Shown: piece after piece, positions 12,588-60,649 of the stretch
Numbering within the stretch: position 1 is the stretch's first letter
Layout: each line of letters starts with the position of its first letter
Assembly (NCBI GenBank): GCA_965153355.1
Contig: OZ231126.1
Span: forward strand, 35,216,001 to 35,280,000
Source: Flaccisagitta enflata
Taxonomy: Eukaryota
Length of the DNA: 64,000 nucleotides
Direction of reading: 5' to 3'
Program-made: the position numbers and the translations under genes
Notes under the pieces: generated by a model
What the model was told of the DNA's origin: nothing
Seen by the model: only the letters and a program-made list of their open reading frames with translations
Database searches by the model: none

Positions 12588-12715
12588 TCTTTTAGGGAAA
12601 AAATCTGTAAGAGACTAAGGGTAAAGTTAAAGTAAAGTTGATGAAAAGTTGATGAAAAGGCATATAGAGTTGTGAAATATTGCTAAAAGAAATGAAGTAT
12701 ACATACAGGTAAAGG

Positions 12716-15700
12716 CTACAAAAATGGTTTTAGATGTAAAGGAAAACCAAAGGCTGAATCTTTACGGAAATTGCGAGAGGAAAAACATCTTTTGCTAGTG
12801 AACAAACTAAGAATTCTTTTATTCACCATGGTAAGGTAAATAGTGCCTTGCACTCTTTTAAAGCCAAATTGTTTTACACGCTTGGGCATTTTTTCGGCCT
12901 TGGCTACATCAAGAAATGCTTTATAAGAAACACAGTTTTTTATTAAAACCCGTTTTAAACCTTTAGTTTTTGTCATGTAGGGTGTCTTTTGTTTGTTAAC
13001 TAGCTGATATTGTTTAACAGAAGCTCCAAGAAAAGCCTCCATAGGCTGATTTTTGCACTCGTCTTTTACATAAAATGATCTAGACCGTCTTAGAGTGGAC
13101 AGGGATTTGTAATTCTTGACTGTGTTTTGATCACTCGCAAATAATGTTTGATAGATATGCGAATCTTCAGTAATACAACTAAAATCTAACAAAGGAAGCA
13201 TTGAGCGCACATATGCCCTGGCCATATTTTTTGATGTTAACGACGAAACCGGCAACTGGCTTAGGCCATCAGCCTTAGCTTCATAAGCCTCATCTAGCTC
13301 TTTTGAAAATTTCCTTCTTATCAGGCTGAGGGACCAGGAGTCGGTGTCCGAAAAGAGCGCGCGACAATCATAGTTTCCAAAATACTTAAATCGGGCCGCT
13401 AATGTGTAAAAAAGGCGCCATAAATAACACTTCGAGCTTGAATAAGTAAGAGCTGAAATCGCAGGCACGTTTTTGCTTGTTATTGTCATCATGTCAAAAT
13501 TCAATATACACGCGTTTTCATTCAAAAAGGTGAAATCGTAGAAGTTATCCCTTGCGGTATATCTCTCAAAAGACCTGCGGTTTAAGCATAGTTTTGATTT
13601 GACAAGGTTGTCAAGACGAGTGTGACACTTCCCTGCAAGCGAGTTGCCACAACTTTTCAGATAACGCGTTATTATCGGCGACACACTTTTATTTTTTGCT
13701 TTTTCAAGCTTGAAAAGCCAATCTGAAAAAATGGGAAATGCCTTCGTCCTTACAATTTTAATCACTTTTCGAATTCTTATATTATGGAAACCTGAAACAT
13801 ACAACAAATTACTCGAAAAATCCGCTGTCCGTAAATTTTTTTTCAAACTCGAAATCAATTTTTCTGGTTCCCTTGACGGATCGCGGTGTAAGCGTTTCCC
13901 CCTTACCACTTGCTCCTTTGTTAGCTGGTCGAAACTTACAGTTTCGTAAAAGGGAAAGTTACTTATTTCAATATTCTGCTTCACAAAAAGAGCATCGTTA
14001 TCATGTGATAAAATAACGACAAAAAAAAAGAGATTATCGTGCAGATGAAGTTGCTCCGAAAAAAAATCAACATCAAGATTCATTAACCGCTGAGATAAAT
14101 CATGAAACTGCCCAGAATTTTTCTTTTTGGAAAAAAATACAAATTTTCCTACACTCATTCGCTGTTGGAGAATTGATGCATAAAGCCCATTGACGTCATG
14201 CAAAGTAAAAGCTTTTAAATAGTGTTTAGGCACTTCATTTGTTTTGTTAACCTCAAGATGTCTAAATGTGCAGTAATTAGAGTTTAAGAAGGAAAAGCCT
14301 CCTCTAAGACCCAGCCCATACAGATCGTGAATAAATTTAGATGGAATTTCAATTTCTAAGGGTCGCGACTTGTTAAATGGACTTCTGCTGTTAAACAACG
14401 CCGCTGAAAGCGCGAACGAGGCATTTGTTACATAAGAAAGTGGGGCCAAACCGCTTAAACTAAAAAAATAATTGAAATAGTAATTTAAACAATCACAAAG
14501 TATTGCAGAATCTAGACCACTGTACAAAACAAGCATAGAAAAATAGTTAGCTGCACCAATTTTTTTCCAGATTTCAAGAAAGTTGGTATAATCAGATTGC
14601 GAGACGCTGGCTTTACCACTGATATGATCGCCCTTTAGACGGCTGAAAAAATGCGTCTTTGGGGGAGGCTCGGTCATATTGAGCGCGTAGCGAAGATTAC
14701 AAAGTTTTTCAAATGGCTGTAAAAAAAAGGAAAAAATCGAAAATAGAAAAACCGATATTCGAAAACCGATATTCGAAAACCGATATTCGAAAACAGATAT
14801 TCGAAACGCGTTAGAACATATTAGAAACGCACCTGTGGGATTTTTTTTGCGATAACAGCCTCAAAAACATCATCCGAGTATTTGAGCTGTTTTGTAATCA
14901 ATTCATATGATCTTCCAAAAACAATTTTCATGTCCTGGCCTTTGTGAATGTTTCTGACATCTTGTATCATGTCGTCTAAAGAGGCTGAAATATGTAGGGC
15001 TGAATCAACAAATGTCAGTCGACGAAGATATGGGCATGAACGGGTGGCTTTATTTCTCATTACGCCAACTGTTTCCGTACACGAGTGAAACGGGCATGTA
15101 TTTATGCTTGGGCAGTTAAAGGAAACACTCAAACTGAGCAGTGTATTCTTGTCCTTATAGAGTACACGAGGCTCTCCCTTGATAATGGGCATTCTAACTA
15201 TTAGTCCATTTTTGTCCTCTTGTGTAAACATAGTGTGTCCAACACGTGCCAACATATCATGCAGGTAACAAAAATCATAATTTTTCCCATTATGAACGGC
15301 CACAAACAACTCACTACGGGGGATGAATCCATCACTTGTGCAATTGATATTGCAAAACTGGCATAGTGTAATTACGTCATGGTTTGATGCTTCTCCACCT
15401 AGGTAACCTTTCTTGGCCAGGTTTGGTAAGCGAATCACGTGATTGTGATGTCTACACTTAACAGCAATGATTGGCCGTTTTCGTACAAAAGTAGACATTC
15501 TCCGAGAAACTTTATTTGAGGGAAATGGAACCCCGTATCGTATTCCACAGAAACTACAGTTTGTTGATCGTTCAAACGCCAATCTATCAGCATCACATAA
15601 ATCGGCTAAGTCGGGTGGACCGGAATCATGGTTTAACGTGTCTCTTATAAAGTTGTAGACGTCAAAAAGTGCCTGTCTAAGTGTTTTTAGTAATTGGATG

Positions 15701-17382
15701 TAAAATTGATCAAGCGTGGCTTCTTCATCATTAAAAAATTTTATATGCGTTTTAGCCAAAGATGGCGGCAGTGTTAGGTCGTAGGGACTTACAAAGGCCA
15801 AAGAGTAGCCTAAAGGTTGCTGCTGAAAGACGCTATTATTTGGTACAGAATGGTCAATGTTTCCTAAGTCTATTTCTTTATTGCTCGCTTCAAAGTCGAG
15901 GCATGCGAAAAGCATTGTTTGGAACGTCTTTGGATAATCTCGGGGCTTGAATTTCAGTACGTTCTTCTGCGTTTTACCGGTGTGTTTATTGCAGACAGTA
16001 GGACGGTGAACAATATGATTACGTAACTTTCTAGGGCCAGTACTCCCGCCTGATCCAGAACACTGAGAAATATGCTTGCTCAGACTGGTCTGCTGAAAGA
16101 ACGCTTTGCAGCAGCCATGACAGGCGCGGAATTTGCCTGATTTCTTGGACGTAGTCCTTAATCGGGACACGATCGCATGGAAATTCAAAATTAATATTAC
16201 ATGATCAACAGATGTGTTCTTGGTCACGATATTGGAAATATCTAACAAATGAACTTGCAAAAAATTGTTTTGCTTCCAGTGTTCCGATAAGTAGGTGTTA
16301 ACAAGATGATAGCTTTTCGAAGCCTTGACCATTTTAAAAAGGCACAAAGAAAAACCATCAAAAGCCTTTAAGAATGGGTACTTGAATAGCAAGGATTTGT
16401 TGAATTTTAAGTTTAGCTGTTCCAAGATGCTTATGTCTGATTTAGAAATCCCGTGCTCCGGCCTGACAATCTCTTGGTATCTTAGATAGTGTAAAGCTTC
16501 AGCCATGTCCTTAGTACTAATTTTATCAAGATTGTTATGTTTTATATGTTCTAATTTGAGTGCGATGCACGCAGGAATGCATATATTCAAGGCTTGTAAG
16601 GACGGATCTAAAAACCGCTCCGGAAACGCGGTTATTCGTCTGCAAATCTTCTTAGGAATCTCCATCAAATCATAGCTGCACTGATTGAAAGTCCTCGCGT
16701 AAGCGGCAATGATAGGCTCCCTCTCAATTTTTACAATATTAATCTGCCTGATATTATCGAAGATCCACCCACTCTCTCTTTTGTTCATTACTGCCTCCAC
16801 ATCGTCGAGAAACAATCGCGTGAAATGAAGTAACATCTCATCCGCTAGACCCTGACGGTACTCTTGATCCAATCTTTCCACAAGGAGCCAGCGTTCGTTT
16901 CTGTACCCGGACATAATGGTTATATGGTCAGTCGGGTCGGTCAGTTTGACAAACTGGATTTCGGCGTTAATGAAACAGATATATTCGTGGTCGGGCTGGA
17001 GTAAATGAAGAAGCCTCGGCCTCAAATAAAAGTTAGAATATATATAAATTTCCACTTCCGGAAGAAAACTTTTCCAGAGCTCTGATTGTGCTCGGACAAA
17101 AACGGTTTTTGAAGACACACCTAAGAGACAAAAGAAGATAAGAGAGACAATAAGAGACAAGACAAGAGAGCGGCATAAGACAAGACAAGATAAGACAAGA
17201 AGAGACAAGACAAGACAAAGAGACAAAATTTATAACTTCTCTGATACGTTTACATATTAATACTCACCACCATAAAAGCAATCAGTCACGTAACTAGACA
17301 CGCGCAACGTGTCCTCATCCAAGGCATCCAGGTCATTTTCATCAAACATTTTGTTCTCCAAGCAATCACCATACCACAACAT
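12716..17382 (-). CDS. Protein-primed family B DNA polymerase (Maverick pPolB), 3 exons, about 1467 aa
   Basis: Exons 17382-17268, 17120-14833 and 14716-12716. Motifs: ESGW; OTU-like NICIPAC...DHVIL; C2HC finger CHGC...HISQC; ExoI LDFEA; HNH/EndoVII-like insert CSFC...HHNH...CQFCN; ExoII HNGKNYD; FVDS; KKIPQPFE...EPPPKTHFFSRL across intron 2; ExoIII YSGLD; pol motif A DVNGLY, motif B KSCGNSLAGK, motif C SDTDS. Confidence 0.93.
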
Positions 17383-20765: not shown

Positions 20766-21137
20766 TCTGAACATAAAACACGCGCGAATGCATAGAAAAA
20801 GAGAATGAAAACGAAAAAGGAGTAGGGATGAAAATGAAAAAGAAAATGAAAATGAAAATGAAAATGAGGAAGGAAGCTAAGGACGAGAGGAAAGGGTGGA
20901 GGAGGAAGAAAAAAAAAGGGGGGGGGGGAGGAAGGACAGAGGATGATTTGAAAACTCTCACACATCACTTAGACACTAGATCAGCGCTTTCTGACACTCG
21001 ATCTCGTTACCCCAACCCACCCCTGCATAATTTGCCACCTACCATTTACAGTTGATGCGCCGATTCTCTGGTTCTGTAGATGCGCACGATCGTCGTGCGT
21101 GGTTTTAAAGCGCTGTCACTCTTTATCACGACGCGAA

Positions 21138-29701: not shown

Positions 29702-31059
<1,358 letters not shown>

Positions 31060-33246: not shown

Positions 33247-33788
33247 TGGTATTATCATTTGACATCTGGAATGTGAAATTCCTGCGTCAAGCTCTCTTTC
33301 TTTCTTTCCTTCCTCTTTTTCTTTTTTTTCTTTCTTTCTCTCTTTCTCTCTTCCTTTCTTTTTCTCTTCCTTTCTCTCTTTCTATCTTTGTCTCACTCTT
33401 TAGATCTTCAGCGGGAAAGACAACGTATTGCGTATCAACGCTTTTACGTTATTTTATGCCCTTATTTAGTACATTGCCACCAACAGCCTTAATCTACTTA
33501 AGCCATACGACTATATCAGACCGTGTAAGAAGTGAAATTCACAAAAACGCCAAATTCTGGGGCGTACCGGCCTATATCTACGAAGGGTAAGAGTAGCCTT
33601 TTGAGCATTTTGAGAGAAAAAAGAATCAATAAAAATTATCTATTGTTATGATCAATATTATTTTTGGCCGCCCAGTGCTCTAACTGAAACAACCCCCCCC
33701 CCCCTTTTTTTTGTTTCTCCTCGTTACAGAGGACTTTTGAATCCTCAATTCTTACAATCACTTGCCCTTACAAAATCGAAAAGATTAC

Positions 33789-33837
<49 letters not shown>

Positions 33838-35061: not shown

Positions 35062-35094
35062 NNNNNNNNNNNNNNNNNNNNNNNNNNNNNNNNN
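35062..35094. other. Assembly gap (33 N)
   Basis: Run of N. Confidence 1.
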
Positions 35095-35590: not shown

Positions 35591-35875
35591 GTCTTTTTTT
35601 ATCTTGTTTGAGGCCTTTGGGCGAATCAGGAAGTGACAAACATCATAAAATGGGAAAGAAGAAATAAAATCAAGCAAAAACAAGGCCAACACCTATAAGT
35701 CGCGTGCGAGACTTACAGATTGACTTAGAATATCTTAGAATGACTTGAAATGACTTAAAGAAAGAAAAATTAATAAAAAAAGTAAAATGGGGACCGACCG
35801 ACTGACCGACCGACCGACCAACCGACAGACGGACAAAGCGGGGTGTAGCGTCGCGTGCACGCGACTAAAAAAAGA
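35190..35875. mobile_element. Host SINE-like repeats flanking copy B
   Basis: gactctacacaccgctatgtcggtccgtcggtcgg (35200) and reversed gcggggtgtagcgtcgcgtgcacgcgactaaaa (35840); same family as fragments near 1600 and 1915. Confidence 0.7.
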
Positions 35876-36103
35876 AAGAGCTTTTTCTTTCGTTGGACGA
35901 CCGCATATCTACCGATTGTGAAATGATGTGAAGGTTGTGATGTGCTCTTAAATTCTGTACATCAAGTGCTTTTTCTTCTGCTCAATTTCCATAAGGACAC
36001 GTTAGACGTCATGTTCTGCAGTCAAAAAGTTCGCAGATTATCTTTGGAGGGGATGTTGCAACAAATCTGTAAATTCGTTCAAGGACGAGTATATGGGGAC
36101 AAT

Positions 36104-36145
36104 AGTAGTATGATATGGTACGCTGAACACCCTCGGTTTTTTTTT
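36104..36145 (+). repeat. Terminal inverted repeat, capsid end
   Basis: Matches 5242-5273 with two mismatches. Confidence 0.8.
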
Positions 36146-36515
36146 ATATTTTTTTAATTATTTCAAAGCCGCCTGCGGCATTTGGGGCGGAAAAATTATC
36201 CACCGCCGAATTCATTTTGCCTCGATATTGTTTATACAAGAATGTTTCAATTTTTAAATGATTTCCTATTTGTCTGTCATTGCCATGCATGATATAGCTA
36301 GATAATAAATAAATAAAAAGTGGCGTTATATAGACTGAAAAAAAAAGGTTTTTCATTTTTTATGTTATTTATTTAGGTAGTAATTCTTTGTTATTTACAA
36401 CGGTTACAATTATTATCATTTACAACTGTTATTCGCAACTGCCCTTTTATTTACATAGACATAATTACAGCCGTATATAGCTATAATCAACATAGACTGG
36501 ATAAAAAAACATAGT

Positions 36516-36644
36516 TTAGCGCCGTCGTTTACGAGTTTTTGTTGTTTTAGCTTGAAATCTTTTAACGTATTTTCCTCCCCGCTTTCGTTGCCGACGTCTT
36601 CTCCCTTTTCTTCGTCTTCGACCTCTTCTTCTTTTCCGTCCCAT
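36516..36644 (-). CDS. Protamine-like Arg-rich peptide (42 aa), putative virion core protein
   Basis: MGRKRRRGRRRRKGRRRRQRKRGGKYVKRFQAKTTKTRKRRR; last gene of the structural block; acceptor aacaag about 22 nt upstream of the ATG. Confidence 0.55.
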   Translation of the reverse strand: MGRKRRRGRRRRKGRRRRQRKRGGKYVKRFQAKTTKTRKRRR

Positions 36645-36783
36645 TTTCTCGTTTTTCAGAAGATCCCTTGTTATTTTAATGAATTTAGAAAAAACATCTG
36701 TTATTGGCCCGTCCAAAAAAAATTTATTTAAAGGACCACTTATCTTTTAGTACCTGTTTAAAGCACTAAGCTGAAGAGAATTA

Positions 36784-36999
36784 TCATAGTACATTGGGTG
36801 TTTTTGTCTCGTTGTTGACCATGAAGGCGTTAGTATTGTTATTTCTCAACATGCAAGAAGTAAGTCTATCAAAGGAGAAGTCTGTCACAAGTAGCCCAAG
36901 CACAATGATAATCAAAAGCACTTTTAAATACTTTGTATTAGATGTTATTGTGGTGCGTATGTTGAGAAAAACAGATGGGATGTTCTCATCAACATCCAT
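36784..36999 (-). CDS. Small single-pass membrane protein (71 aa)
   Basis: Hydrophobic YLKVLLIIIVLGLLV; ATG at 36999 preceded by tttttccag|ata. Confidence 0.55.
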   Translation of the reverse strand: MDVDENIPSVFLNIRTTITSNTKYLKVLLIIIVLGLLVTDFSFDRLTSCMLRNNNTNAFMVNNETKTPNVL

Positions 37000-37035
37000 T
37001 ATCTGGAAAAACAAAGCACAATGACGCACAGGAAA

Positions 37036-37590
37036 TTAAACCGTGCACAATTTGTAAGCTCTTTTAAGAATATAGTTTTCAATTCCAAAAAGCCTGTATT
37101 TTTTTAGCAATGTTTTTAATTTATATACACCTTTCAAACCATGATGTGCAAAATACCACACAAAATAAACAATTTCAAAGCCACAATAGTTTGAGTTAAT
37201 TCTTTGCGTCTTCACATTCCAGACATCAAGGTATAAGTCGTTATATTTACAAAAATTATCAATATCCTTTTTCAAGTCTTGATTTGAACGATAGTTTGAT
37301 AATAATCCATCAACGAATATACATCTACCAGTTTTACCAGTTATTCTCTCTATAAGAAGGACAGTCCAGTGACCAACTTTGCCAGTGTTAGTTTCCGAAC
37401 TATGCATAGTATTAATAATCACGGCAAGCGACTTTTGTTTTTTACACACTCTTGACAGTTGAGGTAACTTATCATAATTCACTACAAATCTTCCCTTTCC
37501 AATAGCGTTATAGGCTTTTTTAAACTTGCTCAAATAATGGATTAAATCTGAATCGCTGGTAATGAGTACATCAGATGTGAATAATGCCAT
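37036..37590 (-). CDS. Adenain-like cysteine maturation protease (184 aa, intronless)
   Basis: AVIINT...GHWTVL (His), FVDGL (Asp), QRINSNYCG (oxyanion Gln and catalytic Cys), typical of Maverick/adenovirus proteases. Confidence 0.92.
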   Translation of the reverse strand: MALFTSDVLITSDSDLIHYLSKFKKAYNAIGKGRFVVNYDKLPQLSRVCKKQKSLAVIINTMHSSETNTGKVGHWTVLLIERITGKTGRCIFVDGLLSNYRSNQDLKKDIDNFCKYNDLYLDVWNVKTQRINSNYCGFEIVYFVWYFAHHGLKGVYKLKTLLKKYRLFGIENYILKRAYKLCTV

Positions 37591-37592
37591 AT

Positions 37593-39628
37593 TTATTGTT
37601 CAGCTTCATAGCCTTTAAATGTCGTTCTATCATGCTCAATAGCTAAAGACCTCAATTGAGAATAAACGACCGTGAGCCTCAAAACTTTTTGAACAGGATT
37701 TTCAAACTTACAGTAGATACTGAAATCATTACTTGGTGAAATAGACCGTGGTTGTGTTTTGTTCATAAGTCCTGCATTAGCCCCCCCAACATTATTATTA
37801 GCGCTTAAACAAAAAGGCAACAAAAATTTGTCCTCCAACCAAAGATTGTAAGGCAAGCTGGCCGAACCTTCTTCATTAAGTTTGCCGAATTGTTGCAGTA
37901 CGTAAAAATATGAAGCTTTTTTACCAGCGTCTGTCGAGAAATCATAACCCTCCAGTTGACCCCCATTATTGCTATAAGCTAAGCTGGGTATTTTAACGGC
38001 GGAAACTCCACTTGAGACGTAAGTATGAACAAGACCATTTCTTTGGAACCGATAAAAATCTTCCTGGTATCTACCAACATGTGTCTGAAAACAAAATGTT
38101 AAATTGTTATTTAATGTAATCCATGTCGATAGCAGTCGATAACGTAACTCAATGTATAACAGAGTTATTACCGTATTTGGAGAAAGAAAGACTATGATGT
38201 TTGATATCGGATCTCGTGTCGAAATGTTAAACGATTTCTCCAATATTCCAGTTTCAATGCTAGTACATAAGACAAAAAAGACAAGAGACAAAAAGACAAA
38301 AGATAAAAAAAACATGTCAATACCAGTCGTACTCTTGGCTGGCTAAAAGACAAAAATTGGAAAAGACAGACATGAGTACCTAAATGACTTGACAAATTTG
38401 GCTAGGAAGTCAATTTGCAGGAAAGATTTAGCCAAACGACTTTCCATGGCTTGAAGGAGAACTGGTTTTAACAAAATAAACTCAACAAGTAGTTTAGCAT
38501 CCAAAATCTTAAATGTTGGTTTACTGGCCGCAGATGTGGTTGTAAAATACTTCTCAGGCGATGTTAGATATATACGAATCCCAACTTCAAGATTCGATGG
38601 TAATAAACTGTTGAAGTTTAAGAATGCGCTTTTTAAGGACATGAAAAATTCCTGTTTTTGTTTTTTAAGAATTTTTAAAGTTCTCCTTCCCCTGCCATTC
38701 TTTCCTGTGTGGGTTGTTTCCCCGTCCACAGTTTTGGCGATTAATGCCAGTGCTGGCGTTGTATACTTTTCTGCTTCGTCTTCTTCAAACCCTAAACAGA
38801 CAAATAAACAAACAAATAGCCACCAGTTGTTGATGGACGACTAAGGGCGTTTTCTGCATGGGTAGGGGTGTGTCCGCAGGGGGACCAACGGACCGACGGA
38901 CGGACGGACGGGCAAAGCCTTTTATAGAGTCGCGTGTCTGCAACTGAAAATGTTTTATCGTTTACAGTATTTTTTAACAAACCTTCAAAAAATTGAAGGT
39001 AGCTGTCTTTTTCTTTTTGGGTCCTTTCAAAAAGCATCTCAAGATACGTGATTAACGCAAAATACTGTGACTGGCGGTCAAGTGTGGATTCGCCTATCGT
39101 TACCTTTGAAAAAAAATGATGATTATAAATGAAATGGACCAGATAAACAAAAAAAGACATTTTTTCCAGGATAAATTTTACACTTACAGAAACATCGTCA
39201 ATCAAACCATGGGACATAATTGGGCATGACACTGTGATATTATCATCAGCTGTTATTGCAGCATCTCCTTCTTTTTGGTATTGCACCGTTAACGAGAGAT
39301 AAATCCTGTAGATAATAGATTAGAAAAAAAATTGTGTGAGGGTTATCGGTTACTAAAAAAAAAGGGTTACTGGTTTTTTGCGGTTATTGAAGAAAGTCAA
39401 ATTCGGTTACCTATGTGGATTAAGCAATGCAACCTTATCCAATATATAAAACGAAATCGAGCGAGAATGCACTGAAAGCTCTTGAGGGTCGACGGGTAGG
39501 ATAGTTTTAAAAGTACGGTAGAGTATACCATCCAAAATAAATGACTGCTCGTTCAACCCCCCTAGTACTTCAGGTGTTTGAATTAGTTTTGGCGCGTGAA
39601 AAGTCGGTGGCGCTCTTGTTTCAGCCAT
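37593..39628 (-). CDS. Major capsid protein (double jelly-roll type), 6 exons, about 482 aa
   Basis: Exons 39628-39411, 39305-39188, 39103-38983, 38791-38380, 38259-38172 and 38084-37593, all GT-AG and phase-compatible. Spliced product shows Maverick MCP-like motifs ISFYI, HGLIDDVSVTIG...YFALITYLEMLF, LLPSNLEVGIRI, AKLLV...LKP...ESRL, GRYQEDFYRF. Confidence 0.82.
38830..38950 (-). mobile_element. SINE-like fragment inside MCP intron 3
   Basis: Reverse strand reads cacgcgactctataaaaggctttgcccgtccgtccgtcggtcc, same family as 35200. Confidence 0.65.
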
Positions 39629-39631
39629 AAT

Positions 39632-39904
39632 TCACAAAAAATTTTTCTTTGTGATTTTATCTTTTTTCTTTTGTTTTTTAATTTTCTTAGGCGTTTTTTT
39701 AGGCAATTTTTTACTTGTTTTTTTTGATAGATTTTTAGGGTTTCCTTGTGTCTTTGTTTGTTTTACTGTTTTAGTTTTGGATTGTCTATTTGGTTTTTCA
39801 CCACTTTTGTTGTTTTCACTGATGGAAGGTTCGGGGCTCAGGTGATTTTCGGTCACGTCAGCGATTTTAAGTAAAGGTTCCAATAATTTAAGTAGATTAG
39901 CCAT
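39632..39904 (-). CDS. Lys-rich basic protein (90 aa), putative core protein
   Basis: KKTSKKLPKKTPKKIKKQKKK; lies between minor and major capsid genes; acceptor ccttag 6 nt upstream of the ATG. Confidence 0.6.
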   Translation of the reverse strand: MANLLKLLEPLLKIADVTENHLSPEPSISENNKSGEKPNRQSKTKTVKQTKTQGNPKNLSKKTSKKLPKKTPKKIKKQKKKDKITKKNFL

Positions 39905-39967
39905 ATCTCTCTAAGGATTTGTACAAGAATAACAAAAAATAGGTAGGCATCTTAAAACAATGATAGG

Positions 39968-41755
39968 CTAGGTTAATGGGCACGGTCTGAACGTAAGAGC
40001 GATTTTTACAATTGTGTCCCGCGGAAAAAGCAGGAATTCTCCATTTTCATCAAAAAGCATCACTTTGAAGGAGTTAAGATGTGTGCGTGCCTTATGTACA
40101 CGGAAAAACGGCTGGGATGGCATTTTAGAGGCTTCAATAGCAATAAACTGTGTACCAAGAGTTTTGGGTTTTAGAGATACTTTAAAAAAGCTGACCATAT
40201 CGTTCCTAGTAAAGAAAGTTTGCTCCTTCTCCATTTGTCGAGACTGTTCAGATAATATGTCACATGCAATAATCAATAATTTTGGGAAAATACGCATCGA
40301 AGCGCTAAGCCTTTGTTTGGGACTCATTATATTGTGAGCAACTCCTGTTTCATTTCTTTTCACGTCTGCCAACGAAATAGGCCCGATTGTGATTTTGTTA
40401 TAATTTTGCGTTGTGATGTCACGGCTTGAACCGAGTTTGTAAGACAAGATAGGAGAGAAAACAATAGATATATGGCTACGCTCTGCCAATTTTGTAAACT
40501 CTAAGTAAAATTTGACCTTGGTTTCGCTTATATCTAGACCTATTGCGGCAAAAGGTCGCGTAAATAGTTGAGAGTTTGAACTATTTTTCAGGCGCTCAAT
40601 TTCAATAGCGATTAAATCCCTAATTTTTTGGCCGATTTTGAACAATTCGATATTATGAGAGATAATCTCCTCAGCATATTTTTTGGACTCTCCAACAAAT
40701 ACGGTTTGAGCCTTTCCGTCTATTTGCTTTACCTCTGTAGTCGCCTTGTCTATAATTCTCAACTTTCTAAACAACCTTGATGTAATTTTACGTTTATTTT
40801 CGGTAACCTTGGCAGCGTTATTGGCGTTTGCTTCCGCCCCCCTTTTTCGTTTATTCGAATCAAGTTCTACGTCGTAATAATCACTGAGATCAATAAGGGT
40901 ATTTGGTTGTACGGCACTACCATCCTCAATGATTATACTAGAGCGATCGGCTAGCGGTAAAAAAAACTTTGAGGGCCTTAAAATCCCAGCTTCAAAATCA
41001 CTAGTCATGCTGGGTCTTAAGTATGTTACATTGTATGGAATCAATTTGGTTATTGGCCTAAGAGGCTCGGACAAGCCATTGAGATACTGGATAATTTCAA
41101 ACCTGGCAAAAAAACCGATATCCAAATATCTTAAAAGAAGCTCAAGTTCGGTTCTAGTTACATTCATAATATTTTCCCCATCTAATTTATCAAATACCCT
41201 AAAATCAAAAATTCCGTGATGGTCTAGGAATAACTCTGAATATCGCGCGATAAGAAACATATTTGATCCGTTTGAAAGGAGAGTATTGACGTGTCTGACA
41301 GCTTGATGAATGTCAGCGCTGTAGAAGTCCGATAAGTTAACCACTAGAGGTGTATTGTTTTTTATTTCCAACTTCCTTTCGCTAAATATAACATTGTCCC
41401 TTGCCAAATGTGTGGCTAATGTTACATATGTTTTTATGTTTTCATCAGGATCAGCCCGAAAAAGAAGAGGAGAGGAGTCGATCAATAGCGTGTCAACGCG
41501 AACCTGAAGGGGGGAAATGGTGGCATTGTTAAGAGCTGGGGCTATGTGTCTGTAATTAGCAGGCTGGTAAAGTATGCCACGTACCTCCACGTCGGGACTC
41601 TGAAGAAAACTGAGTTGGGCTAAATCAAGTGGCGGATTTAAGTCAACTTCGAAATTGCTACCGCTCGAAATACGTTCTGGCGGCAAGCTCATTTCAGTTT
41701 TTTCGTTAGACACATGCAGCGTGTAACATTCCGATGAATTCGCGTTGAAATTCAT
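39968..41755 (-). CDS. Minor capsid protein (penton-like) with large central insertion; probable 81-nt in-frame intron 41504-41584
   Basis: N-terminal YTLHVSN...SNFEVDLNPPLDL...EV and C-terminal FFRV...LNSFKVMLFDENG..LLF...IALTFR match the Maverick penton pattern. Confidence 0.75.
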   Translation of the reverse strand: MNFNANSSECYTLHVSNEKTEMSLPPERISSGSNFEVDLNPPLDLAQLSFLQSPDVEVRGILYQPANYRHIAPALNNATISPLQVRVDTLLIDSSPLLFRADPDENIKTYVTLATHLARDNVIFSERKLEIKNNTPLVVNLSDFYSADIHQAVRHVNTLLSNGSNMFLIARYSELFLDHHGIFDFRVFDKLDGENIMNVTRTELELLLRYLDIGFFARFEIIQYLNGLSEPLRPITKLIPYNVTYLRPSMTSDFEAGILRPSKFFLPLADRSSIIIEDGSAVQPNTLIDLSDYYDVELDSNKRKRGAEANANNAAKVTENKRKITSRLFRKLRIIDKATTEVKQIDGKAQTVFVGESKKYAEEIISHNIELFKIGQKIRDLIAIEIERLKNSSNSQLFTRPFAAIGLDISETKVKFYLEFTKLAERSHISIVFSPILSYKLGSSRDITTQNYNKITIGPISLADVKRNETGVAHNIMSPKQRLSASMRIFPKLLIIACDILSEQSRQMEKEQTFFTRNDMVSFFKVSLKPKTLGTQFIAIEASKMPSQPFFRVHKARTHLNSFKVMLFDENGEFLLFPRDTIVKIALTFRPCPLT

Positions 41756-41833
41756 GTTTGGCCTAAGTATCTGTGGTAACTAAAGATACAATACAATACA
41801 ATACAATACAGTACAATATAATCCAATAATAAA

Positions 41834-43462
41834 CTAGATAATATATTTTTTCAAATGAGAGTCATTCAAAATGTCCTGATCATAGGTAAGGATTTTGGGA
41901 CCAAAGAGTCGTTTATATAGCTTTAATGTGTTTCCATCCACAAATTGCCTGGTACCATTATTTGTTATATCATAACTCATTTCAAAAGCGTGCGCATATT
42001 TCTTTCCACTTCGGAGTTTTGATTCAACTTGTGGAATTATGTTGTTCACTACAATCACTGGTTTACTTAGGGATTTTTCCTTTATGGCTTTATTTTCATG
42101 CAAGTCATTTTCCTTTTCAATAAGAGGGTTTACTTTCATTAAGCTCCAAGCGTAAAACTTCTCATCGGTGGGCCTATTTTCCAAAATATATTGGTATGGC
42201 AAGCGCTGGGTCAAAATTTTTTTTATGACATATGTCTCTTCAGATACTTGTGGATAGAAGACAGATGATTCCTTTCGAATCAATTTTTTTGGATATCTAA
42301 TTCTAACAACATCATTTATTTTTAACTTTCTATTTTCATGAAGTGTTTGATAACGAAGAAATGCATCGCTCTGGTGTTTCTCATATGTAACCAGCGATTT
42401 CCTAAAAACTACACTTGCAGCGTAATCAAAATGTTGAACTAGATGAGGATTAAATTGAAATAGGCCTTTATGACTTTTAGAGTTAAAAGCGATTTGGGTT
42501 AAATGAATGAGATGTTCATAATTCTTTACTGTAGGGAACCGTAGTAAAAATCGAAAAAACAGCGCTTTCCAGCTTCTGATTTGTCGTTCTATAAGCGAAA
42601 CTTTCTTATGTGGCCCAGTTGACAAATACACATGCTTAAGACCCAAACGTTTTCCAAGTCCCTTTCCGAATTCGCCACCTCTGTCTGTAACGAGAGTCGT
42701 GTAATGGTTATTTGGAGCAAAAAAAGGGAGACATTCTTGAAATTTTTCATAAATTTCATCGGCGGTTGCCGTTTTGCAGACGCGGAGTTGGCAAAATCGA
42801 CTAAAACAATCGATAAGACAGAATATGATGGTTGGAGCGGCGCCTTTGGTGACCTCAGTCCTCTTGACTATGGAAATTGGCCTCAAAAAAGCCAAATCGC
42901 TGGCTATTTGATTCCCTTTTTTTTGGAAAGAAAAAAATATTGTATCACGTATTGTATTGTTTTGGGTATTGTATTGTTTTGTCATGTGTATTGTGTATTG
43001 TATTGTATCACGTATCGTATTGTATTGTATTGTATCGTGTATTGTATTGTATTGGGTTTTTTATTGTATTGTATCACAAAATGTATTGTATTGTATTGTA
43101 TTGTATTTTATGATTTGTATTTATTGTATTATACTCCAAATTTGTTTTGTATTGTTTCGTAATGTATTGTATTGTATTGTATTGTATTGTATTGTATTGT
43201 ATCGTATACCTGGCCCGTAACATTCCCACTTTCTTGTACTTTCGTAACGGCGACGGCCTCGTAATTCGCGTGCTTCCACGGAGCGGGATATATTGTAAAG
43301 ACTCGCACGATAATCCAGCACATCTTGTGAGGTCAAATTGTAATCAGCATTTGCTCTGGCATCCTCTAATATTGAAGATGTGTTTGGATGCAAAAAAATA
43401 TCTTTTTCAGAGTCGTAATATCGCGTCAATAGTCTTTGTAGGCTTGCTGTCTTTTCATCCAT
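41834..43462 (-). CDS. Retroviral-like (rve) DDE integrase, 2 exons, about 444 aa
   Basis: Exons 43462-43210 and 42915-41834 (phase 1). QIASDL (D), LIDCFSR, VTDRGGEF (D), SLIERQIRSWK (E), FNSKSHKGL, INDVVRI...SEETYVIK. Confidence 0.93.
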
Positions 43463-43511
43463 GTTAAAAATTCCCTGTGTTTATAAAAAGAAGCTTTACA
43501 GAAAACAATCC

Positions 43512-44477
43512 TCATTTGACTAGGTGGCGTATAAATTTGCAAGGGATTCGTTTTTTAGAGACTGGACAGTTTTTAAGAAAAATAGCCAAACAATGTTTTT
43601 CAGCCTTGGTAAATGGTTTGACTGTTTCATAACGATATTGCAGAAACTTAAAAAGTTTAGATCTATTGAAAGATATACAAGCCAATAAATTTGCTAGGTC
43701 CAAAGAATGTGGAGATTGCTCATTATCCTTTAAGGGAAAATACACAAAGCGTTTCTTTAAGTAAAAGCGATTTTTGGGGAGATGAATACTGCTAGTTTTT
43801 CTGTCAAAAGCACCTCTGTTTTCTACAAATTTTTGTAATGCCGAGGCGTGATTCCGCAAGTTGTCTAAAAAGATAGTATTCACCTTATTTTTCATGTAAG
43901 TTAAAACCACATTAACAGCATCCTGTATCCAAATGGCTGATGAATTTCTAGAAGTATTTTTTGACATAGATACACGACTGTCATCAGAGTTATGATTATC
44001 AAGTTGTAATACCCCTTTCAATTTAGAATTTTTCCCAGTTTTTTTCTTTTCGATAACAGTATTATCAGAGCTTGGTTCAGTTAATACCGAATTTGTGGTT
44101 TGAATTTCACTGCCACCCTTCATTACATTTGGATGGGCTGCCTCATGATCAGCCATGATTTCTCGTTCTTTTATTAATGTTGATTGTAGTTTATGTCTGT
44201 TAAAACAATCTGTTAATAAATAACTTTTCGCTTCGTCGTTGAATGATTTACTTTCAAGAATTTTAAGACATTCCTTTCGTAATTTCTCTATGTCCATTTT
44301 TGCTATGTCATTACTTTTATTAACATCACCAGCTCCTTCTTTTATATCAATATTTTTATCCTCGGTAGACTGCGTTGGTTCAGGCACGAGTTCCTTTTTA
44401 TTTTCTGTTTCACTACTTTTTGTTTGTTTGTGGAGGTGTTGAATAGCAAGCAAAACGATCGATAAAAAATCGTGTTC
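43512..44477 (-). CDS. Hypothetical protein (about 320-aa terminal exon; upstream exon unresolved)
   Basis: Long open frame directly upstream of the integrase, with an acceptor cag near 44478. Contains MKGG, a possible adenain cleavage motif. Confidence 0.6.
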   Translation of the reverse strand, partial: EHDFLSIVLLAIQHLHKQTKSSETENKKELVPEPTQSTEDKNIDIKEGAGDVNKSNDIAKMDIEKLRKECLKILESKSFNDEAKSYLLTDCFNRHKLQSTLIKEREIMADHEAAHPNVMKGGSEIQTTNSVLTEPSSDNTVIEKKKTGKNSKLKGVLQLDNHNSDDSRVSMSKNTSRNSSAIWIQDAVNVVLTYMKNKVNTIFLDNLRNHASALQKFVENRGAFDRKTSSIHLPKNRFYLKKRFVYFPLKDNEQSPHSLDLANLLACISFNRSKLFKFLQYRYETVKPFTKAEKHCLAIFLKNCPVSKKRIPCKFIRHLVK

Positions 44478-44724
44478 CTGAATGAATGAATGAATGAATT
44501 CATTTTCGACGACAAAGGAAAATTACAATATTGGGCATTGTAAAACTGTTATATATATACCTCTATAATAAATTTTCGTGTAACGTTAGTTGCAGCTGAA
44601 AGAAGATTTCTTCTTATGTTTTCTGATAAATCCGTTAGCTTCTTTTTTATGACTTCATTTTCCTTTTGGCTATCCATTTAAAACATTGGGCATTCCTGTT
44701 GTGACATGAAATAAAAATATAGTA

Positions 44725-47492
44725 TTAACTAGTTGGAGCTTTATTCAAATCATAGAAACCATATGATAGGAAATGCATGAAATCACGAATAGCTTGTGAA
44801 TTATCAATAAGTTGATCGTTAGGGGCAACAGGGGCTAAGACTCTGTAGGGGCACATCTTGGAAAGTTTTGCGTACGAGGCCATAAAACAGCCATTTTTTC
44901 GCCATCTTCTACTTCTAAATATAAGGGCAGAAGTGATTAAGGACGCATTGTCATGCTGTCGTACAAACGTGTAAGGGAATTGTTTGCGTTTAGTTGGGAC
45001 CGCAAAGACGTCTCGTGAGGCTAAAGAAATGGCTGGTTTGGTCTTAGATAGAATAAACCTTCTCCTATTTACAAAAAAAGTAGCATCAAAGATCCATGCA
45101 CTCAACTGCTCATCAGACAGATCATGAAATGATGTCGATACAAGCCATGGCTCACAAGTCTTAGAGGAATGAGCCGCTAACACTTTTTTGGCTATGTTAA
45201 GTTGGCTGGCAAGTTTGTATTTTGTAAGGAAAAAGTCTAGTTGTGATGCAATTTCTGGATAGAATATATCTTGCAAAAATTGATACCGGCTCTTGCCAAA
45301 AATTATCTCAGATGTTTTAGATAGAATATCAAATTCCAATTTTCTTGTGAGTTGCAAACGAATGATCTGTGATAAAGTTGGAAATGGGACTTCTTTGTTG
45401 ATGTCACAAAGCCTCCCTCCATCAACTGTCTCGATTTTAAACGTAAAACCCGAGCAGGCAGCCAGCGTTATGTAAAAGCGGCAATCAAACATTTCATCCT
45501 CGTTAGCGTGTTGAGATTCTACATTTTTATAATGTGGTGGTCGAATATTGTGAAAGACGGATTTGTAGCATGTATCAAGTCTCGTAGAACCGGGAAGAGA
45601 GGCAGATAGGTTAAAGGAAAGGGTGCCTTTTTGTGGATTGAAAACACAACCCATGGTTTCTGGGAGGCTGCCGGACCTCTGCGTTGCAGTACTATAATCC
45701 CTATGATAGGAAAGATAGATAAACCACTTTAGAATAAAAAGACCAACAAAAAAAGACCAACAAAATTATTTTTGAAAGAATAACAGGACAGTGTAAAGAA
45801 AAGAAAAAATTCTACCTAAGAAGATCTAGTACTCTGGAATCTGGATTAAGGCCACTTCTGAATAGGAGGTTAGTCTTTTCTTCTGTTGAAACTATTGTTG
45901 AGGACATACAATCTTCAGCCAGTTCCTCCACCCTGTTAGGTACTGGTTGTCCGGGCCCATATCTGAGAAAAGACAAGAATTGGTCATATTGGTATTGTAT
46001 TGTATTGTATTGTATTGTCGTAATAAGTATTGGGTATTGGTATTGTATTGTATTGGGTATTGGGTATTGGGTATTGTATTGGGTATTGGGTATTGGGTAT
46101 TGTATTGTATTGTTATGTTTTGTATTGGTTTAAGGATATTGTGCGCTTGGTGTATCACGGCATGTACCTGCTGCATTCGTCGCAGGGGTCAAGATTCTCG
46201 GATACACATGATTTGTCGCCCTCTTGAATTGGAATACTTTGGCACATTTCTTGACGCGAAACAAGGCTTGCCGTCTTATTTCTACTGAGCGCCAGACCAT
46301 AACTCCGCGCGAAAAGACAGCTAGACAAGTATTTGGGGTCCTTATGAAAGAGAGAGGTCGAGTAGACCTGCGCCTGGTCTGTTGACTGGCAAATGATAAA
46401 ATTGTCAGGAAAATCATATAACGGAGGAATCTGTTTTAACCCGCTGGCTTTTTCCAAATTGATGCAGGCTTCTTTTTCACATGCATCGCCAAACATAGTA
46501 TTCCAGAAATAAGGCCAGTCTTGGTTTTTCTCTCCTCTATAAGAAGTAGATGCCGTCATGTTTTTCAGCTTCTTTTCCTCAAATTTACCCATTGTAGCCA
46601 CCGATGGTGTTAAACTGATATTCAAATCGCATAAAGAGTTAGGCGGTGGAGGTTCTCGCCTTGTTCCAAGATGTTCCTCCAATTCACAGAAACGCTCAGG
46701 GCGTGGGCCCATATTTGACCTGATTTGGTTATTCAACTGTTCCTCGTTGTCGAGAACTAAGGGCTTCTCATTCAAAACATTTTCAAGTAATTTAGCTGTG
46801 ATTCTATCACGCTGCTGACGGTTTCTCTCACTAATTGGTGAGTCGCCAACAAAATCTTGCGCGGCTTGGCTCCCATTGATGCGGGTTAGCATGTCAGGAA
46901 TCGGGGGCAGTATTTGATGCTGCCAGCGTTGGACACGTCTAGGAGTTCTTGTGTGTCTCAGGGCAAAATTCACATCATAAATTTTCTGATGAATCGACGG
47001 GGCAAAGAAAGCTTCTTCGTTCCAATCACCCATGCGAATTGAGGAATAAATGTATTGCGTCGCTGCCGTGAGCTGTGAGGGTGTGGGCCAATTTCTTTTA
47101 AACCGGTCACGTTTGTTCGTTATCGCGTCCAACTCTGCCTGAAACCTAGGCGACTGATTCAGATACTCGCTATTGCTCTGGTTAAGCAAGCGACGACTGT
47201 GGTCTAATTTTAGCGCTGAGTAACTGCCAGAATGTGGGTACCAGATACCAAACTCAGCCGACGAAAACATTTGGTTTCTTATAGCGTGTTCATCAACACG
47301 AGCAGAGTTCTCTTTCCTGCTCACAGTATCCGCACTCAATTTGTAAACAGAGGGGCAATTTCGGGAATTAATTTGCCAGCTAATAATCAAATAACTAAGT
47401 CTTTGAGCCCCGGACGCGTCACGCGCCATGAGATTACGCGCAGAGACTAGATGTGGCCTTATATCTTTGTTTTGTTCGCAACCTTTAGACAT
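44725..47492 (-). CDS. Three-exon hypothetical protein, about 815 aa (start uncertain)
   Basis: Exons 47492-46168, 45962-45816 and 45700-44725 joined by phase-2 GT-AG introns into one open frame; no motif recognised. Confidence 0.7.
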
Positions 47493-48590
47493 CGAGGTCT
47501 TCAAATTATGTTTTTCTTTGCAGCAAAAGCCTGAGAGTGGAAAATCCTAATCTCAATCTGGCAAGCATTGGAATAAGCGTAAAACAGGATGGATTGACAG
47601 ATAGATAAATCGATAGACGGACTGTTTCCAAAGAGAAGGAAGGCAAGGGATGGACGGTAGGCCAGGGCGGACAAGCTCAAGGGCGGGCAAACTGTTTTTT
47701 CACACACACCTGAAAACCGCTTTTTCTCGGTTTCGCTGCAATTGCTTAGAAAACTCCATGTGTTAACTGAATTTCCTGTAAAATTTTGACTGACGTCGCC
47801 TTCCAGGTTGGATGTATGACGAGTCAGAATTGGCGTCAGAGTCCAATGATTCGCTGAAGGACAGAGGGTGTATTTCACAAAAAGCAAACCCAAGTCGTTT
47901 TATGCTTGAGTTACTAAGATATCATTTACATATCATAAAGACATCATTCAGATATCATATACAGATATCCTTTATATTTGAATTATGAAGATATCAGTTT
48001 GAAATGTCTACATATATATTATGATTATATAAAAGTGAACATATATATATATGAATATATATGGTAGTATGAGGAGTTCACTTAATGTGAAATTCACCTA
48101 AGTGAGCCTTAGTGAATCCCGGGGGACAAAAATTTAAAAAGCTAAAACCGACATCTACGAGTTCTTTTGACATATTGGGATCCGTAAAGGAAAGATTTTT
48201 TTGTTGGCCAAAAAAAAAGTCATGAATGGATTCAGCCGAAGGCACGGCGAGGGCAGCCAGATTGAATTCCAGCCCTGCGCGCGGGAGAGCCTTAGAAAGA
48301 AGAAAAAGGGAAAGCGTTAGATAGTTCCATATTCTGGGGTGTTCTTATAAAGAATTCAAGTGCATTGATAAAAAAGAAAGTGCAGTGAGAAAGAGAAAGA
48401 GAAAAAAAGAACATTGGATTCGTCTTCTTTGATCTTTTGTTTTTCCATTTTGGTCTCGTTCATGCGCAGGCGCTTAACGCCTATCGGCGGTTAGAATAGG
48501 TACTACAAGTTAGCTTTTGAACAAAAGCAACCAATCACTCTGCAGTCATTCCGCGCTACGTAAAAATGCTGCTCTTGTTGCGTTTTTGCA

Positions 48591-48930
48591 AATGCCAAAC
48601 ATGTTTTTGCGGCTCTACTATCGAAACTTATTAAGCGCAACATAGTGAAATACAAAGCTACAGGCATGCAACTCTACAATCGAGGCTTCTTCGTCCGTCG
48701 GTCTGCTTCGTCGGTCGGTCGGTCCGTCGGTCCGTCGATCGGTCCGTCGGTCCGTCGGTTGGTCCGTCTCTCGTTTGTGCCAAACATGTTTTTGCGGCTC
48801 TACAGGCATGCAACTCTACAATCGAGGCTTCTTCGTCCGTCGGTCTGCTTCGTCGGTCGGTCGGTCCGTCAGTCGGTCGGTCGGTCGGTCGGTCGGTCCG
48901 GTCCGTTGGTTGGTCCGTCTCTCGTCTGTG
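48591..48930. repeat. Local duplication containing SINE-like (gtcg/gtcc)n repeats
   Basis: ctacaggcatgcaactctacaatcgaggcttcttcgtccgtcggtctgc occurs at about 48658 and 48800. Confidence 0.7.
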
Positions 48931-49216: not shown

Positions 49217-49404
<188 letters not shown>

Positions 49405-58548: not shown

Positions 58549-60649
58549 ACGATAAAAGCTACATAAACAAAATAAGATAATGCCAGGTGCGTTTTGAGTG
58601 GAAATGCCAGGTGCGTTTGGAGTGAAAAAAAAAACACACATACAAAATGTTGTTTTGCCCTTTAAAAATTCTTTTAAAAAGAGAGAGACAGAGAGAGACA
58701 CAGAGAGAGACACATAGAGACAAAGAGAGACAGAGAGACAAAGAGAGACAGAGAGAGACAGAGAGAGACAAAGAGAGACAGAGAGACAAAGAGAGACAAA
58801 GAAAGACAGAGAAACAGAGAGACAGACAGAGAGACAGAGAGAGAGACAGAGAATGAGAAAAAAAAGAAACAGATTTAAAACAAAACAAAACAAAAAAGCC
58901 ATATTTGATTAGTTTAAATGAATACGCGCTTTGTTTGATTCTAAATTTTGGCGTGATTGAATAATTTGTCCTTGTCCCTGTCTAACAACAACCTCTGGCA
59001 GAATGGAACGGAGCGGAGCGGAAGCGGGACAACAAGGTGCGGAATGGAGGTCACACGGAGGACAAACTCGTGTTCGTGACGACCCGCTCGTGACAACAAC
59101 TCGGTGCTCATGATGAGCGGCGCCTCACAACAGATCATCCCTCGATCATCCCTCGATCATCATCATCTCCTCCGTGTCTACGAAAATATATATATATACG
59201 GAGGAATCATTGTCGAGGAATCTTTGGACGACGACGACGATGACGACGACGACGACGACGAGAGCGGAAAACGGCTACAGTGGCGACCTCAAAAGAACGA
59301 GTTCGTGGCGAAATACAGCGGGATTTTTAGCGGCAAATCGATCGATCGATTGAGAAGGCGGCGACGACGACGACGACGACGAATACGACGATGAAGATGC
59401 GAGACGACGACGGAGCGTTACGCTGCTATCAATATCGATCGCGGAAGAAGACACAAAGCGGATATATTCTTAATAAAGAAACATACAGGTGATAATCCGA
59501 TGATTTTACACGGCGATGATAGCAATCTGGCGTGTAATTGCTTTCGATGTGTGTATATGTTGTATGGTGTATGTATGTACGTATGTACTTGGTCTAGTAC
59601 CACGGTTCTTTTTTTTCTTTCTTACACATATATGGTATCGAAGGGGAAATCAAGACTACCATAAATATAATTTTGATTTTCATTAATGAAATAATAAGTA
59701 TAAAGATTACCAGCGGCCTTCGGCCGCTGGTAATTTAAAAAAAAAAAAAAAGCCAAACCCGGGGGGGGGGGAACCCCCCCCCTTTATTCCCCTCCCCCCC
59801 CTTTTCCCTTTTCCCCCCACCCCCTCCTTCCCCCTCCCCCTCCCTTCCCTCCCCCTTTCCCCTTTTTTCCTTCCCCTTTGGTGGTGGTGGTGGTGGAGGT
59901 GGTGTTGGTGTTGGTGGTGTTGGTGGTGGTGGTGGTGGGAGGGAGGGGAGGTAGGTGTTTGGGGGAGAGAGAGAGAGAGAGAGAGAGAGTTGAGAGAGAG
60001 TTGAGGAGTTGAAGAAGTTGAGAATAATCGAGGAATTTGGGAGTCGAGAGGAGCTGAGGAATAAGTCAACCAAAGAAATACAGAGATAATGGAGAAATGG
60101 AGAAAAAAACCGACGAAAGGCGAATTGGAAACGGATATGCGTTTTATAAAAACCCGGACATTGGAGATTCAAATGGAGTCCTCGAATTGAAATAACAAAG
60201 AAAACGGTGGAAGGAATGTTATTGAAGGTGATAAAATATTGTCTTAATCTGTTTTATTTAGGGGTATCTGGTTTTTGTTATTTCTTTGATTCCAAATTTT
60301 TTCCTTATTTAGATTAGGCTTCGGTTTTTTTGTTTTTTTTGTTTTTTGTGTAAAATATATATATATAGGGGCTTTGTCATTTTTTCTTTGTATTAGGGGG
60401 GTTTTTAGGAAAACAAAACTGGCCTTTCTTTTCCCCCCCCCCCTTTCCTCTTTAGATTCGTCTCGGGTATATAAGGAAGGGGTAGTTGTACTTTTTTGCA
60501 CATTGATTTTTCATTCCGTTCATGCGGATCACGTCTTTTTTTTCTCTTTGCCATTCTCTCTCTTTGTCTCACTTTCTCTTTCCCTCTCTGTCTCTCTCTT
60601 TGTCTCTCTCTTTTCTCTTTCTCTCTCTCTCTCTCTCTTTTCTCTCTCT

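Follow-up and report, generated by a model that had tools for sequence, protein, structure and literature searches.

The adenovirus major late transcription unit is the classical precedent for late genes expressed from a common leader by alternative splicing, and spliced leaders (SLs) occur in several groups of marine invertebrates and protists. In marbled eel adomavirus, acceptors in use lie immediately upstream of the ATGs of LO4 to LO7 and are served by a three-exon leader, and the gene order penton, core, hexon, and adenain is described by the authors as syntenic with that of adenoviruses and adintoviruses (accessible part of bioRxiv 10.1101/341131). Intact vertebrate Mavericks are reported as intronless in the accessible text of PMC8097293, the word stem "splic" does not occur in that of the paper describing adintoviruses (PMC8502044), and neither "operon" nor "trans-splic" occurs in that of PMC10748475. 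Introners inside Polinton-like proviruses of dinoflagellates have been reported (PMC12166617, accessible part). No transcript map or splice site description of a Maverick, Polinton, or adintovirus was found in the abstracts searched or in the accessible text of PMC8502044, PMC8097293, and PMC10748475, and others may exist. Here we describe a 64,000-nucleotide (nt) stretch of Flaccisagitta enflata DNA (GenBank assembly GCA_965153355.1, contig OZ231126.1, positions 35,216,001 to 35,280,000), referred to as the window and numbered from its first letter, which carries an apparently intact, intron-bearing Maverick/Polinton (adintovirus-like) element. Motifs resembling 3' splice sites stand shortly before the ATG of several of its genes. 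We tentatively favor the reading that a subset of these motifs are real 3' splice sites, with a donor at position 47709 acting as the shared leader donor for the virion genes.

The locus appears to resemble adomaviruses and adenoviruses in its succession of penton-like, basic core-like, capsid-like, and clan CE protease genes, named by position and, for the protease, by fold. It is also similar to adomavirus in having acceptor-like motifs a few nt before several ATGs and a donor-bearing candidate leader upstream, although at this locus these are sequence motifs only. It differs from both in that its putative capsid and protease open reading frames (ORFs) have no acceptor of their own, in that its genes contain 14 short introns, and in that its replication module consists of a protein-primed polymerase and an rve-like integrase. 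The candidate sites are also weaker than the real acceptors of the same element. The protein-primed polymerase, the clan CE protease, and a Walker-A ATPase exon are shared with Mavericks, Polintons, and adintoviruses (Preplasmiviricota), as may be the rve-like integrase (below cut-off) and the penton-like protein (a lead only). As for differences, spliceosomal introns are present, one of them conserved in position, and no terminal inverted repeats were found between the candidate border regions. If the shared leader is used, the mode of late gene expression of adenoviruses and adomaviruses would extend to their presumed Polinton-like relatives, and their kinship would reach from virion proteins to gene expression strategy.

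Acceptor-like sites upstream of the gene starts

The original prediction, made from the letters of the window, had placed a pyrimidine-rich tract and an AG just before the ATG of eight genes. All eight AGs and ATGs were found on the minus strand, 1 to 22 nt apart, but a tract with at least 8 pyrimidines in the 12 nt preceding the AG was present at only four of them. The pyrimidine fraction was 0.92 for the transmembrane (TM) ORF and 0.75 for the PC4-like gene, the Zn-finger gene, and the presumed ATPase start, compared to 0.58 for the integrase, penton-like, and Lys-rich ORFs and 0.33 for the Arg-rich ORF. An AG within 22 nt was found at all 13 gene starts studied. However, the same holds for a fraction of 0.68 of the 1,068 minus-strand ATGs and 0.65 of the 1,110 plus-strand ATGs, so that the bare AG is what chance would give. 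The combination of an AG with a tract of 8 pyrimidines in 12 nt preceded 4 of the 13 starts, compared to fractions of 0.085 and 0.079 of the minus-strand and plus-strand ATGs, respectively. About half of the sites do show the tract-plus-AG pattern, and at one of them it is conserved.

For a quantitative comparison, sites were scored with a pooled-tract acceptor model derived from the element's own 14 curated introns, which replaced an earlier and noisy position-specific matrix of 13 acceptors. The null distribution was obtained from 2,000 dinucleotide shuffles of the 60 nt upstream of each start. For the true acceptors, scored by leave-one-out, the median was 5.5 and the lower quartile was 4.2 (4.23). 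Sites scoring 2.5 or more were found within 25 nt of 5 of the 13 starts, compared to a null mean of 1.50 (P = 0.0075), and within 40 nt of 6 of them, compared to 2.31 (P = 0.0045). With an earlier version of the acceptor model, based on 13 introns, and a score of 3.0, 5 of 13 starts had a site, compared to 2.05 (P = 0.0245). In all, the motif was present at 5 to 7 of the 13 starts. The best scores within 40 nt were 3.9 to 4.1 for the PC4-like gene, 1.2 to 1.6 for the Zn-finger gene, and 2.2 to 3.0 for the presumed ATPase start; values for the individual sites of the cluster are given in Table 1. Sites scoring 3 or more were ten times as dense in the spacers (5 in 417 nt, 12 per kb) as in the coding sequence (11 in 9,353 nt, 1.2 per kb, with the penton intron counted as coding).

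The TM ORF allowed a comparison with relatives, since it has three homologs, at 97, 75, and 74% identity. Two of them, as called, begin upstream of the conserved Met and show there the signature that also marks the true acceptor of the penton intron. The letters preceding its Met are ...LFFQIM in the window, ...FFFPQIM in P0013 (75%), and ...LFSLQIM in P0014 (74%), which suggests that a pyrimidine tract followed by CAR, ATH, and ATG has been kept in three lineages within a spacer of ~31 to 36 nt. The comparison runs through amino acid letters, which do not reveal the last base of the Q codon, and P0013 and P0014 may not be mutually independent. A profile search with the TM ORF alignment returned its own cluster only (1 protein). 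Splicing that would fuse the protease to the TM ORF was also considered and rejected: the window has the two in one frame, but in the P0013 lineage a comparison of the letters indicates a spacer ~5 nt shorter.

Candidate leader donor and proposed mode of expression

A common leader had been predicted, as an example, within positions 47500 to 48500. A strong and unpaired donor does lie in that interval, at 47709, but the leader exon itself is a candidate only. With a donor model from the curated introns, this site scored 9.1 to 9.4, the best value in 47500 to 49300. It precedes the gene A acceptor by 178 nt, and a donor as good in the same distance range was found at none of 3,000 random positions in the element. 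Within the candidate leader exon, a frame that begins with an ATG at about 47757 runs open up to the donor (47710-47757, minus strand); joined to 47531, it would give a short upstream ORF that closes ahead of the gene A start. Donors located 60 to 350 nt upstream of the candidate acceptors reached 9.4 for gene A, 7.5 for the integrase, 6.8 for the TM ORF, and 6.3 for the Lys-rich ORF. The local donors of gene B and of the integrase, penton-like, Lys-rich, and TM ORFs, with scores of 4.3 to 7.5, gave no clear gain over chance.

In the mechanism that we propose, the element would be transcribed in the nucleus and its RNA processed by the host spliceosome. The sites in use would be those of gene A, gene B, the integrase, the penton-like ORF, the TM ORF, the PC4-like gene, and the Zn-finger gene, and splicing at each AG would remove the upstream sequence, leaving the AUG of the ORF as the first one after a short noncoding leader. 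For gene A, the Zn-finger gene, and the PC4-like gene, local partner donors (178, 275, and 101 nt upstream, respectively) would define ordinary introns of the 5' untranslated region (5'-UTR). For the packed virion genes, the single strong donor at 47709 combined with alternative acceptors would be the most economical arrangement, similar to adenovirus and adomavirus late transcription. For their part, the putative capsid and protease ORFs would share the mRNAs of the upstream neighbor and be translated by re-initiation or leaky scanning. What is observed are the AGs, the introns, the conserved TM motif, and the donor-like sites; the use of any of these AGs and its pairing with a particular donor are inferred. 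The original prediction of a common or trans-spliced leader is partly supported by the presence of spliced genes, the TM site kept in two relatives, the donor at 47709, and the adomavirus precedent. Canonical poly(A) hexamers were found near the 3' ends of only four of the nine cluster genes (gene A, the putative capsid gene, the TM ORF, and the Arg-rich ORF), which fits nested, 3'-co-terminal mRNAs.

Several results weigh against this proposal. At the strength of real acceptors (score of at least 4.23), only 1 of 13 starts had a site, compared to an expected 0.76 to 1.16 (P = 0.56 to 0.74); moderate acceptor-like sites are in excess and strong ones are not, and the outcome depends on the threshold. 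Four starts had no acceptor-like site, namely, those of the putative capsid gene (-9.0 to -9.4), the polymerase gene (-7.4 to -8.3), the protease gene (-4.6), and the Arg-rich ORF (-4.0 to -4.3). The Lys-rich site was weak (0.6 to 0.7, a score reached by shuffles with P = 0.56), and two short upstream ATGs separate the gene B site from its start. The minus strand has 0.20 donors per kb with a score of at least 9, so that the presence of one at a distance of a few hundred nt is not unusual, and apart from that of gene A the local donors did not stand clearly above chance (null fractions of 0.07 to 0.73). For the PC4-like gene, the Zn-finger gene, and gene A, ordinary short 5'-UTR introns with local donors are simpler than a common leader. 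Leader introns from 47709 to the gene bodies would measure ~3 to 10.7 kb, compared to 306 nt or less for the known introns. The support from relatives is confined to the TM site and, there, to amino acid letters. The argument from poly(A) signals is weakened by the 21 hexamers present in 12.8 kb of AT-rich sequence. Finally, four RNA runs aligned to 35850-42940 showed no gene coverage and no joints or loose ends at any candidate AG.

RNA reads and DNA of relatives

The four runs (X1 to X4) were marine metatranscriptomes, and the aligned stretch was selected in advance so as to keep clear of long (ATACA)n arrays; it ends short of the leader region and of the sites of gene A, gene B, and the integrase. 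X4 (poly(A) RNA, taken at ~6 in 100 of the run, 12,162,974 records) yielded 529 reads, all aligned only partly and almost all located on a GGAC-type repeat at 38880-38930, with depths of 0.22 or less elsewhere. On that repeat, 525 of the 529 reads were only 90 to 95% alike, and X4 may derive from another organism. X1 yielded one exact 228-nt contig within the penton-like ORF (40050-40277, depth of 3.4), which may be RNA or carried-over DNA; apart from it, X1 to X3 gave nothing at the candidate sites. The RNA result says nothing either way on the use of the AGs. Scans of viral, metagenome, and genome contigs found no DNA of relatives.

The GGAC-type repeat (38880-38950, in candidate capsid intron 3) was abundant in all four RNA runs at 90 to 95% likeness, which points to a dispersed, transcribed repeat. 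Positions 1 to 3500 of the window are full of a related-looking tandem or dispersed repeat.

Alternative explanations

The motifs could instead be a product of chance and composition, an explanation that we consider nearly as likely as the splice site reading. The spacers would simply be T rich and their AGs unused, with the genes expressed from compact promoters, one for each gene or group, or by re-initiation on unspliced polycistronic RNA. The high frequency of AGs before minus-strand ATGs and the lack of excess at real-acceptor strength are both in agreement with this, as are the per-gene shuffle P values, which were mostly unremarkable (0.035 to 0.78, with 4 of 13 below 0.05), and the TATA-like words read in some spacers. 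The spacing of the genes bears on the same point. Gaps of about 40 to 130 nt had been thought to leave little room for promoters, and spacers of 47, 49, 78, 63, 36, and 139 nt were measured. Two more, absent from the original prediction, are of only 3 nt, between the Lys-rich ORF and the putative capsid gene, and 2 nt, between the latter and the protease gene, and with such stop-to-start gaps at least two genes must be expressed without an acceptor of their own. Chance accounts less well for the TM motif, kept in two relatives in a spacer too short for a promoter, for the excess of moderate sites over shuffles, and for the ten-fold difference in density between spacers and coding sequence. The TATAAA before the integrase is also a poor promoter candidate: it lies only 19 to 24 nt from the ATG, and at the usual TATA spacing the transcripts that it directs would begin at the ATG or past it.

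The Lys-rich ORF and capsid exon 1 are in one frame (39628-39635), one TGA and one codon apart. These TGA-separated frames and the protease ATG, 2 nt past the capsid stop (37590-37595), suggest coupled translation or read-through.

Trans-splicing of a host SL, in which a host SL RNA would be joined at the AGs of an operon-like precursor, is an unlikely explanation. The virus would have adopted host operon processing, at conserved acceptors 3 to 18 nt before the starts, instead of per-gene promoters, a scenario to which we assign a similarly low probability. The locus does share with the SL operons of nematodes, tunicates, and others the co-oriented, packed genes, the spacers of tens to ~140 nt, and the acceptor-like sites near several ATGs. 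Such sites also occur outside the main cluster, at the PC4-like gene, the Zn-finger gene, and the presumed ATPase start, and SL addition would make long cis introns unnecessary, the known introns being all of 306 nt or less. On the other hand, no Rfam family, SL RNAs included, matched the window, and nine starts of neighboring low-complexity, host-like genes (including two pairs that are copies within an inverted repeat) had no site with a score of 3 in the 40 nt before them, the highest score being 2.7. Unlike in SL operons, where an acceptor precedes every downstream cistron, the putative capsid and protease starts lack one (-9.4 and -4.6, respectively), as does the Arg-rich start (-4.3), and canonical poly(A) hexamers are missing near five of the nine gene ends. 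No report of SL trans-splicing of Maverick/Polinton genes was found in the abstracts searched.

Ordinary 5'-UTR introns throughout, with no shared leader, are less likely still. In that case every gene would be driven by a separate promoter, and a short noncoding first exon lying within the gene upstream would be followed by a short intron that ends shortly ahead of the ATG. Donor-like sites do occur 60 to 350 nt upstream of each candidate acceptor, at distances matching the known introns of 81 to 306 nt, but outside gene A they do not clearly surpass those of random positions in the element (null fractions of 0.07 to 0.73; a hand-computed Fisher combination gave about 0.1), and the promoters would need to sit in the coding sequence of the upstream gene.

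Introns of the element

The firmest result, although a side finding with respect to the acceptor-like sites, is the intron-bearing, apparently intact Maverick-like element itself. The curated set comprises 14 GT-AG introns of 81 to 306 nt in the core genes (12200-47709, minus strand), and their in silico removal yielded complete ORFs in all six genes tested (gene A, gene B, and the integrase, penton-like, polymerase, and putative capsid genes). Insertions due to decay were ruled out as the cause of the gene interruptions, which are bounded by GT and AG and whose removal restores complete frames in 6 of 6 genes.

The penton intron contains no stop codon and preserves the frame, and gene callers consequently read through it. 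The penton-like ORF has six homologs, at 44 to 99% identity. In two of them, P0003 (64%) and P0004 (44%), the exon end E-V-R is followed by an F-, S-, and L-rich stretch, variable in length and with Q as its last residue, and then by the conserved next exon; P0002 and P0005, which start inside the intron and contain the 3' part only, likewise have Q before the conserved exon. A translated donor, pyrimidine tract, and CAG would read in just this way, and judged from these letters the intron has kept its position down to 44% identity. This signature served as a positive control for the reading of splice signals from translated gene calls. An apparently intact element with 14 spliceosomal introns in its core genes is unusual compared to the intact vertebrate Mavericks, described as intronless, and an intron position kept to 44% identity shows that the lineage has long depended on the nuclear spliceosome.

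Microsatellites of the (ATACA)n/(GTATT)n type occur in the integrase intron (42949-43207), in gene A intron 1 (45987-46127), and in the integrase-penton spacer (41786-41828). Read on the minus (gene) strand, the spacer copy is opposite in orientation to both intron copies.

Genes of the element

The polymerase, PC4-like, and Zn-finger genes and a compact, co-oriented cluster extending from 47492 to ~36516 are, as ORFs, all on the minus strand. The order in the cluster is gene A, gene B, integrase, penton-like ORF, Lys-rich ORF, putative capsid gene (six exons), protease, TM ORF, and Arg-rich ORF (Table 1). The recognized genes span at least 46 kb, with low-complexity genes interspersed. A blastn comparison between candidate border regions gave no inverted match that would indicate terminal inverted repeats, and the borders are undefined; the window contains no tRNA genes.

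Table 1. Positions in the window of the genes, acceptor-like AGs, and candidate 5' introns of the element (aa, amino acids)
Feature	Position	Strand	Remarks
Polymerase, protein-primed family B	12716..17349	-	Three exons, 1456 aa; frame open after in silico splicing
PC4-like gene	ATG 12587	-	
Zn-finger/acidic gene	20774-17859, ATG 20765	-	
Gene A	44725..47492; exons 47492-46168, 45962-45816, 45700-44725	-	815 aa; Met-to-stop frame after in silico splicing
Gene B	43512..44677, intron 44560-44478	-	Two exons, 360 aa
Integrase (rve-like)	41834..43462, intron 43209-42904	-	Two exons, 440 aa; frame checked
Penton-like ORF	39968..41755, intron 41584-41504	-	In-frame 81-nt intron; 568 aa spliced
Lys-rich ORF	39632..39904	-	90 aa; a candidate for the virion core, judged from position only
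Putative major capsid gene	37593..39628	-	Six exons; 482-535 aa by choice of intron 3 donor
Protease, clan CE (adenain/Ulp1-like) cysteine type	37036..37590	-	
TM ORF	36784..36999	-	71 aa; small conserved membrane protein
Arg-rich ORF	ATG 36644	-	
Candidate gene A acceptor AG	47532-47531	-	38 nt before ATG 47492; score 3.0-3.3
Gene B acceptor-like AG	44696..44697	-	18 nt before ATG 44677; score 3.6-3.7
Integrase acceptor-like AG	43475..43476	-	12 nt before ATG 43462; top candidate, score 6.4, shuffle P 0.046
Penton AG, first	41772-41771	-	15 nt before ATG 41755; score 3.4-3.5
Penton AG, originally predicted site	41764-41763	-	7 nt before ATG 41755; pyrimidine 0.58
Lys-rich AG	39911..39912	-	6 nt before ATG 39904; weak
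TM ORF acceptor-like AG	37003..37004	-	3 nt before ATG 36999; score 3.5-4.3
Arg-rich AG	36667..36668	-	22 nt before ATG 36644; not pyrimidine rich
Candidate PC4 acceptor AG	12606-12605	-	17 nt before ATG 12587
Candidate Zn-finger acceptor AG	20768-20767	-	1 nt before ATG 20765
AG at presumed ATPase start	58559..58560	-	10 nt before ATG 58548
Candidate gene A 5'-UTR intron	47531..47709	-	179 nt; donor GT at 47709, candidate leader donor
Candidate polymerase-PC4 spacer intron	12605..12706	-	Donor 12706, score 5.4; fills most of spacer
Candidate Zn-finger 5'-UTR intron	20767..21042	-	Donor 21042, score 6.6

The polymerase was assigned from its Atlas neighbors, 29 of 30 of which share a family set including DNA_pol_B_2 (score of 0.96, recognition of 2618), and a DTDS motif was read in its sequence; both of its ORF pieces lacked a Pfam match at E values up to 0.01. 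The integrase matched Pfam rve with an E value of 0.0023 and 18.6 bits, under the curated cut-off of 32.6, and the D, D, E spacing was recognized by eye. The penton label is a lead only: the ORF has Preplasmiviricota proteins as its Atlas neighbors, among which the Sputnik V18/19 family ranks fourth (recognition of 1600), and its AlphaFold model was poor (predicted local distance difference test [pLDDT] value of 47.8). Gene A had no Pfam match, nor did three exons of the putative capsid gene, whose label comes from position only.

For the protease, H74, D94, Q129, and C136 were invariant in all six aligned sequences. Its structural model, of low confidence (pLDDT of 52.1), gave five Foldseek matches at E values up to 0.001, and we take those listed to be mostly clan CE proteases; the adenovirus proteinase 4ekf appeared at rank 18 (E value of 5.1e-3). 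The protease sequence itself had no PDB match (best E value of 0.99) and no Pfam match.

The Walker-A exon of the ATPase was read in the sequence at ~58090-58260 on the minus strand. The original prediction had the ATPase starting at 58548, which we treat as a presumed start only: on reading the sequence, no GT-AG intron in the right phase was found to join that ORF to the Walker-A exon. A (CT)n array lies between the two (58090-58560, minus strand; copy at 33132-33590, plus strand).

The only large inverted repeat pairs 27643-35061 with 56630-64000, running to the end of the window, with long arm pairs that are 96 to 100% complementary. Its inner left edge adjoins a scaffold gap of 33 N (35062-35094), and it may represent a genuine inverted duplication or else an artifact of a haplotig or of scaffolding. 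The repeat carries host-like low-complexity genes and the Walker-A ATPase exon.

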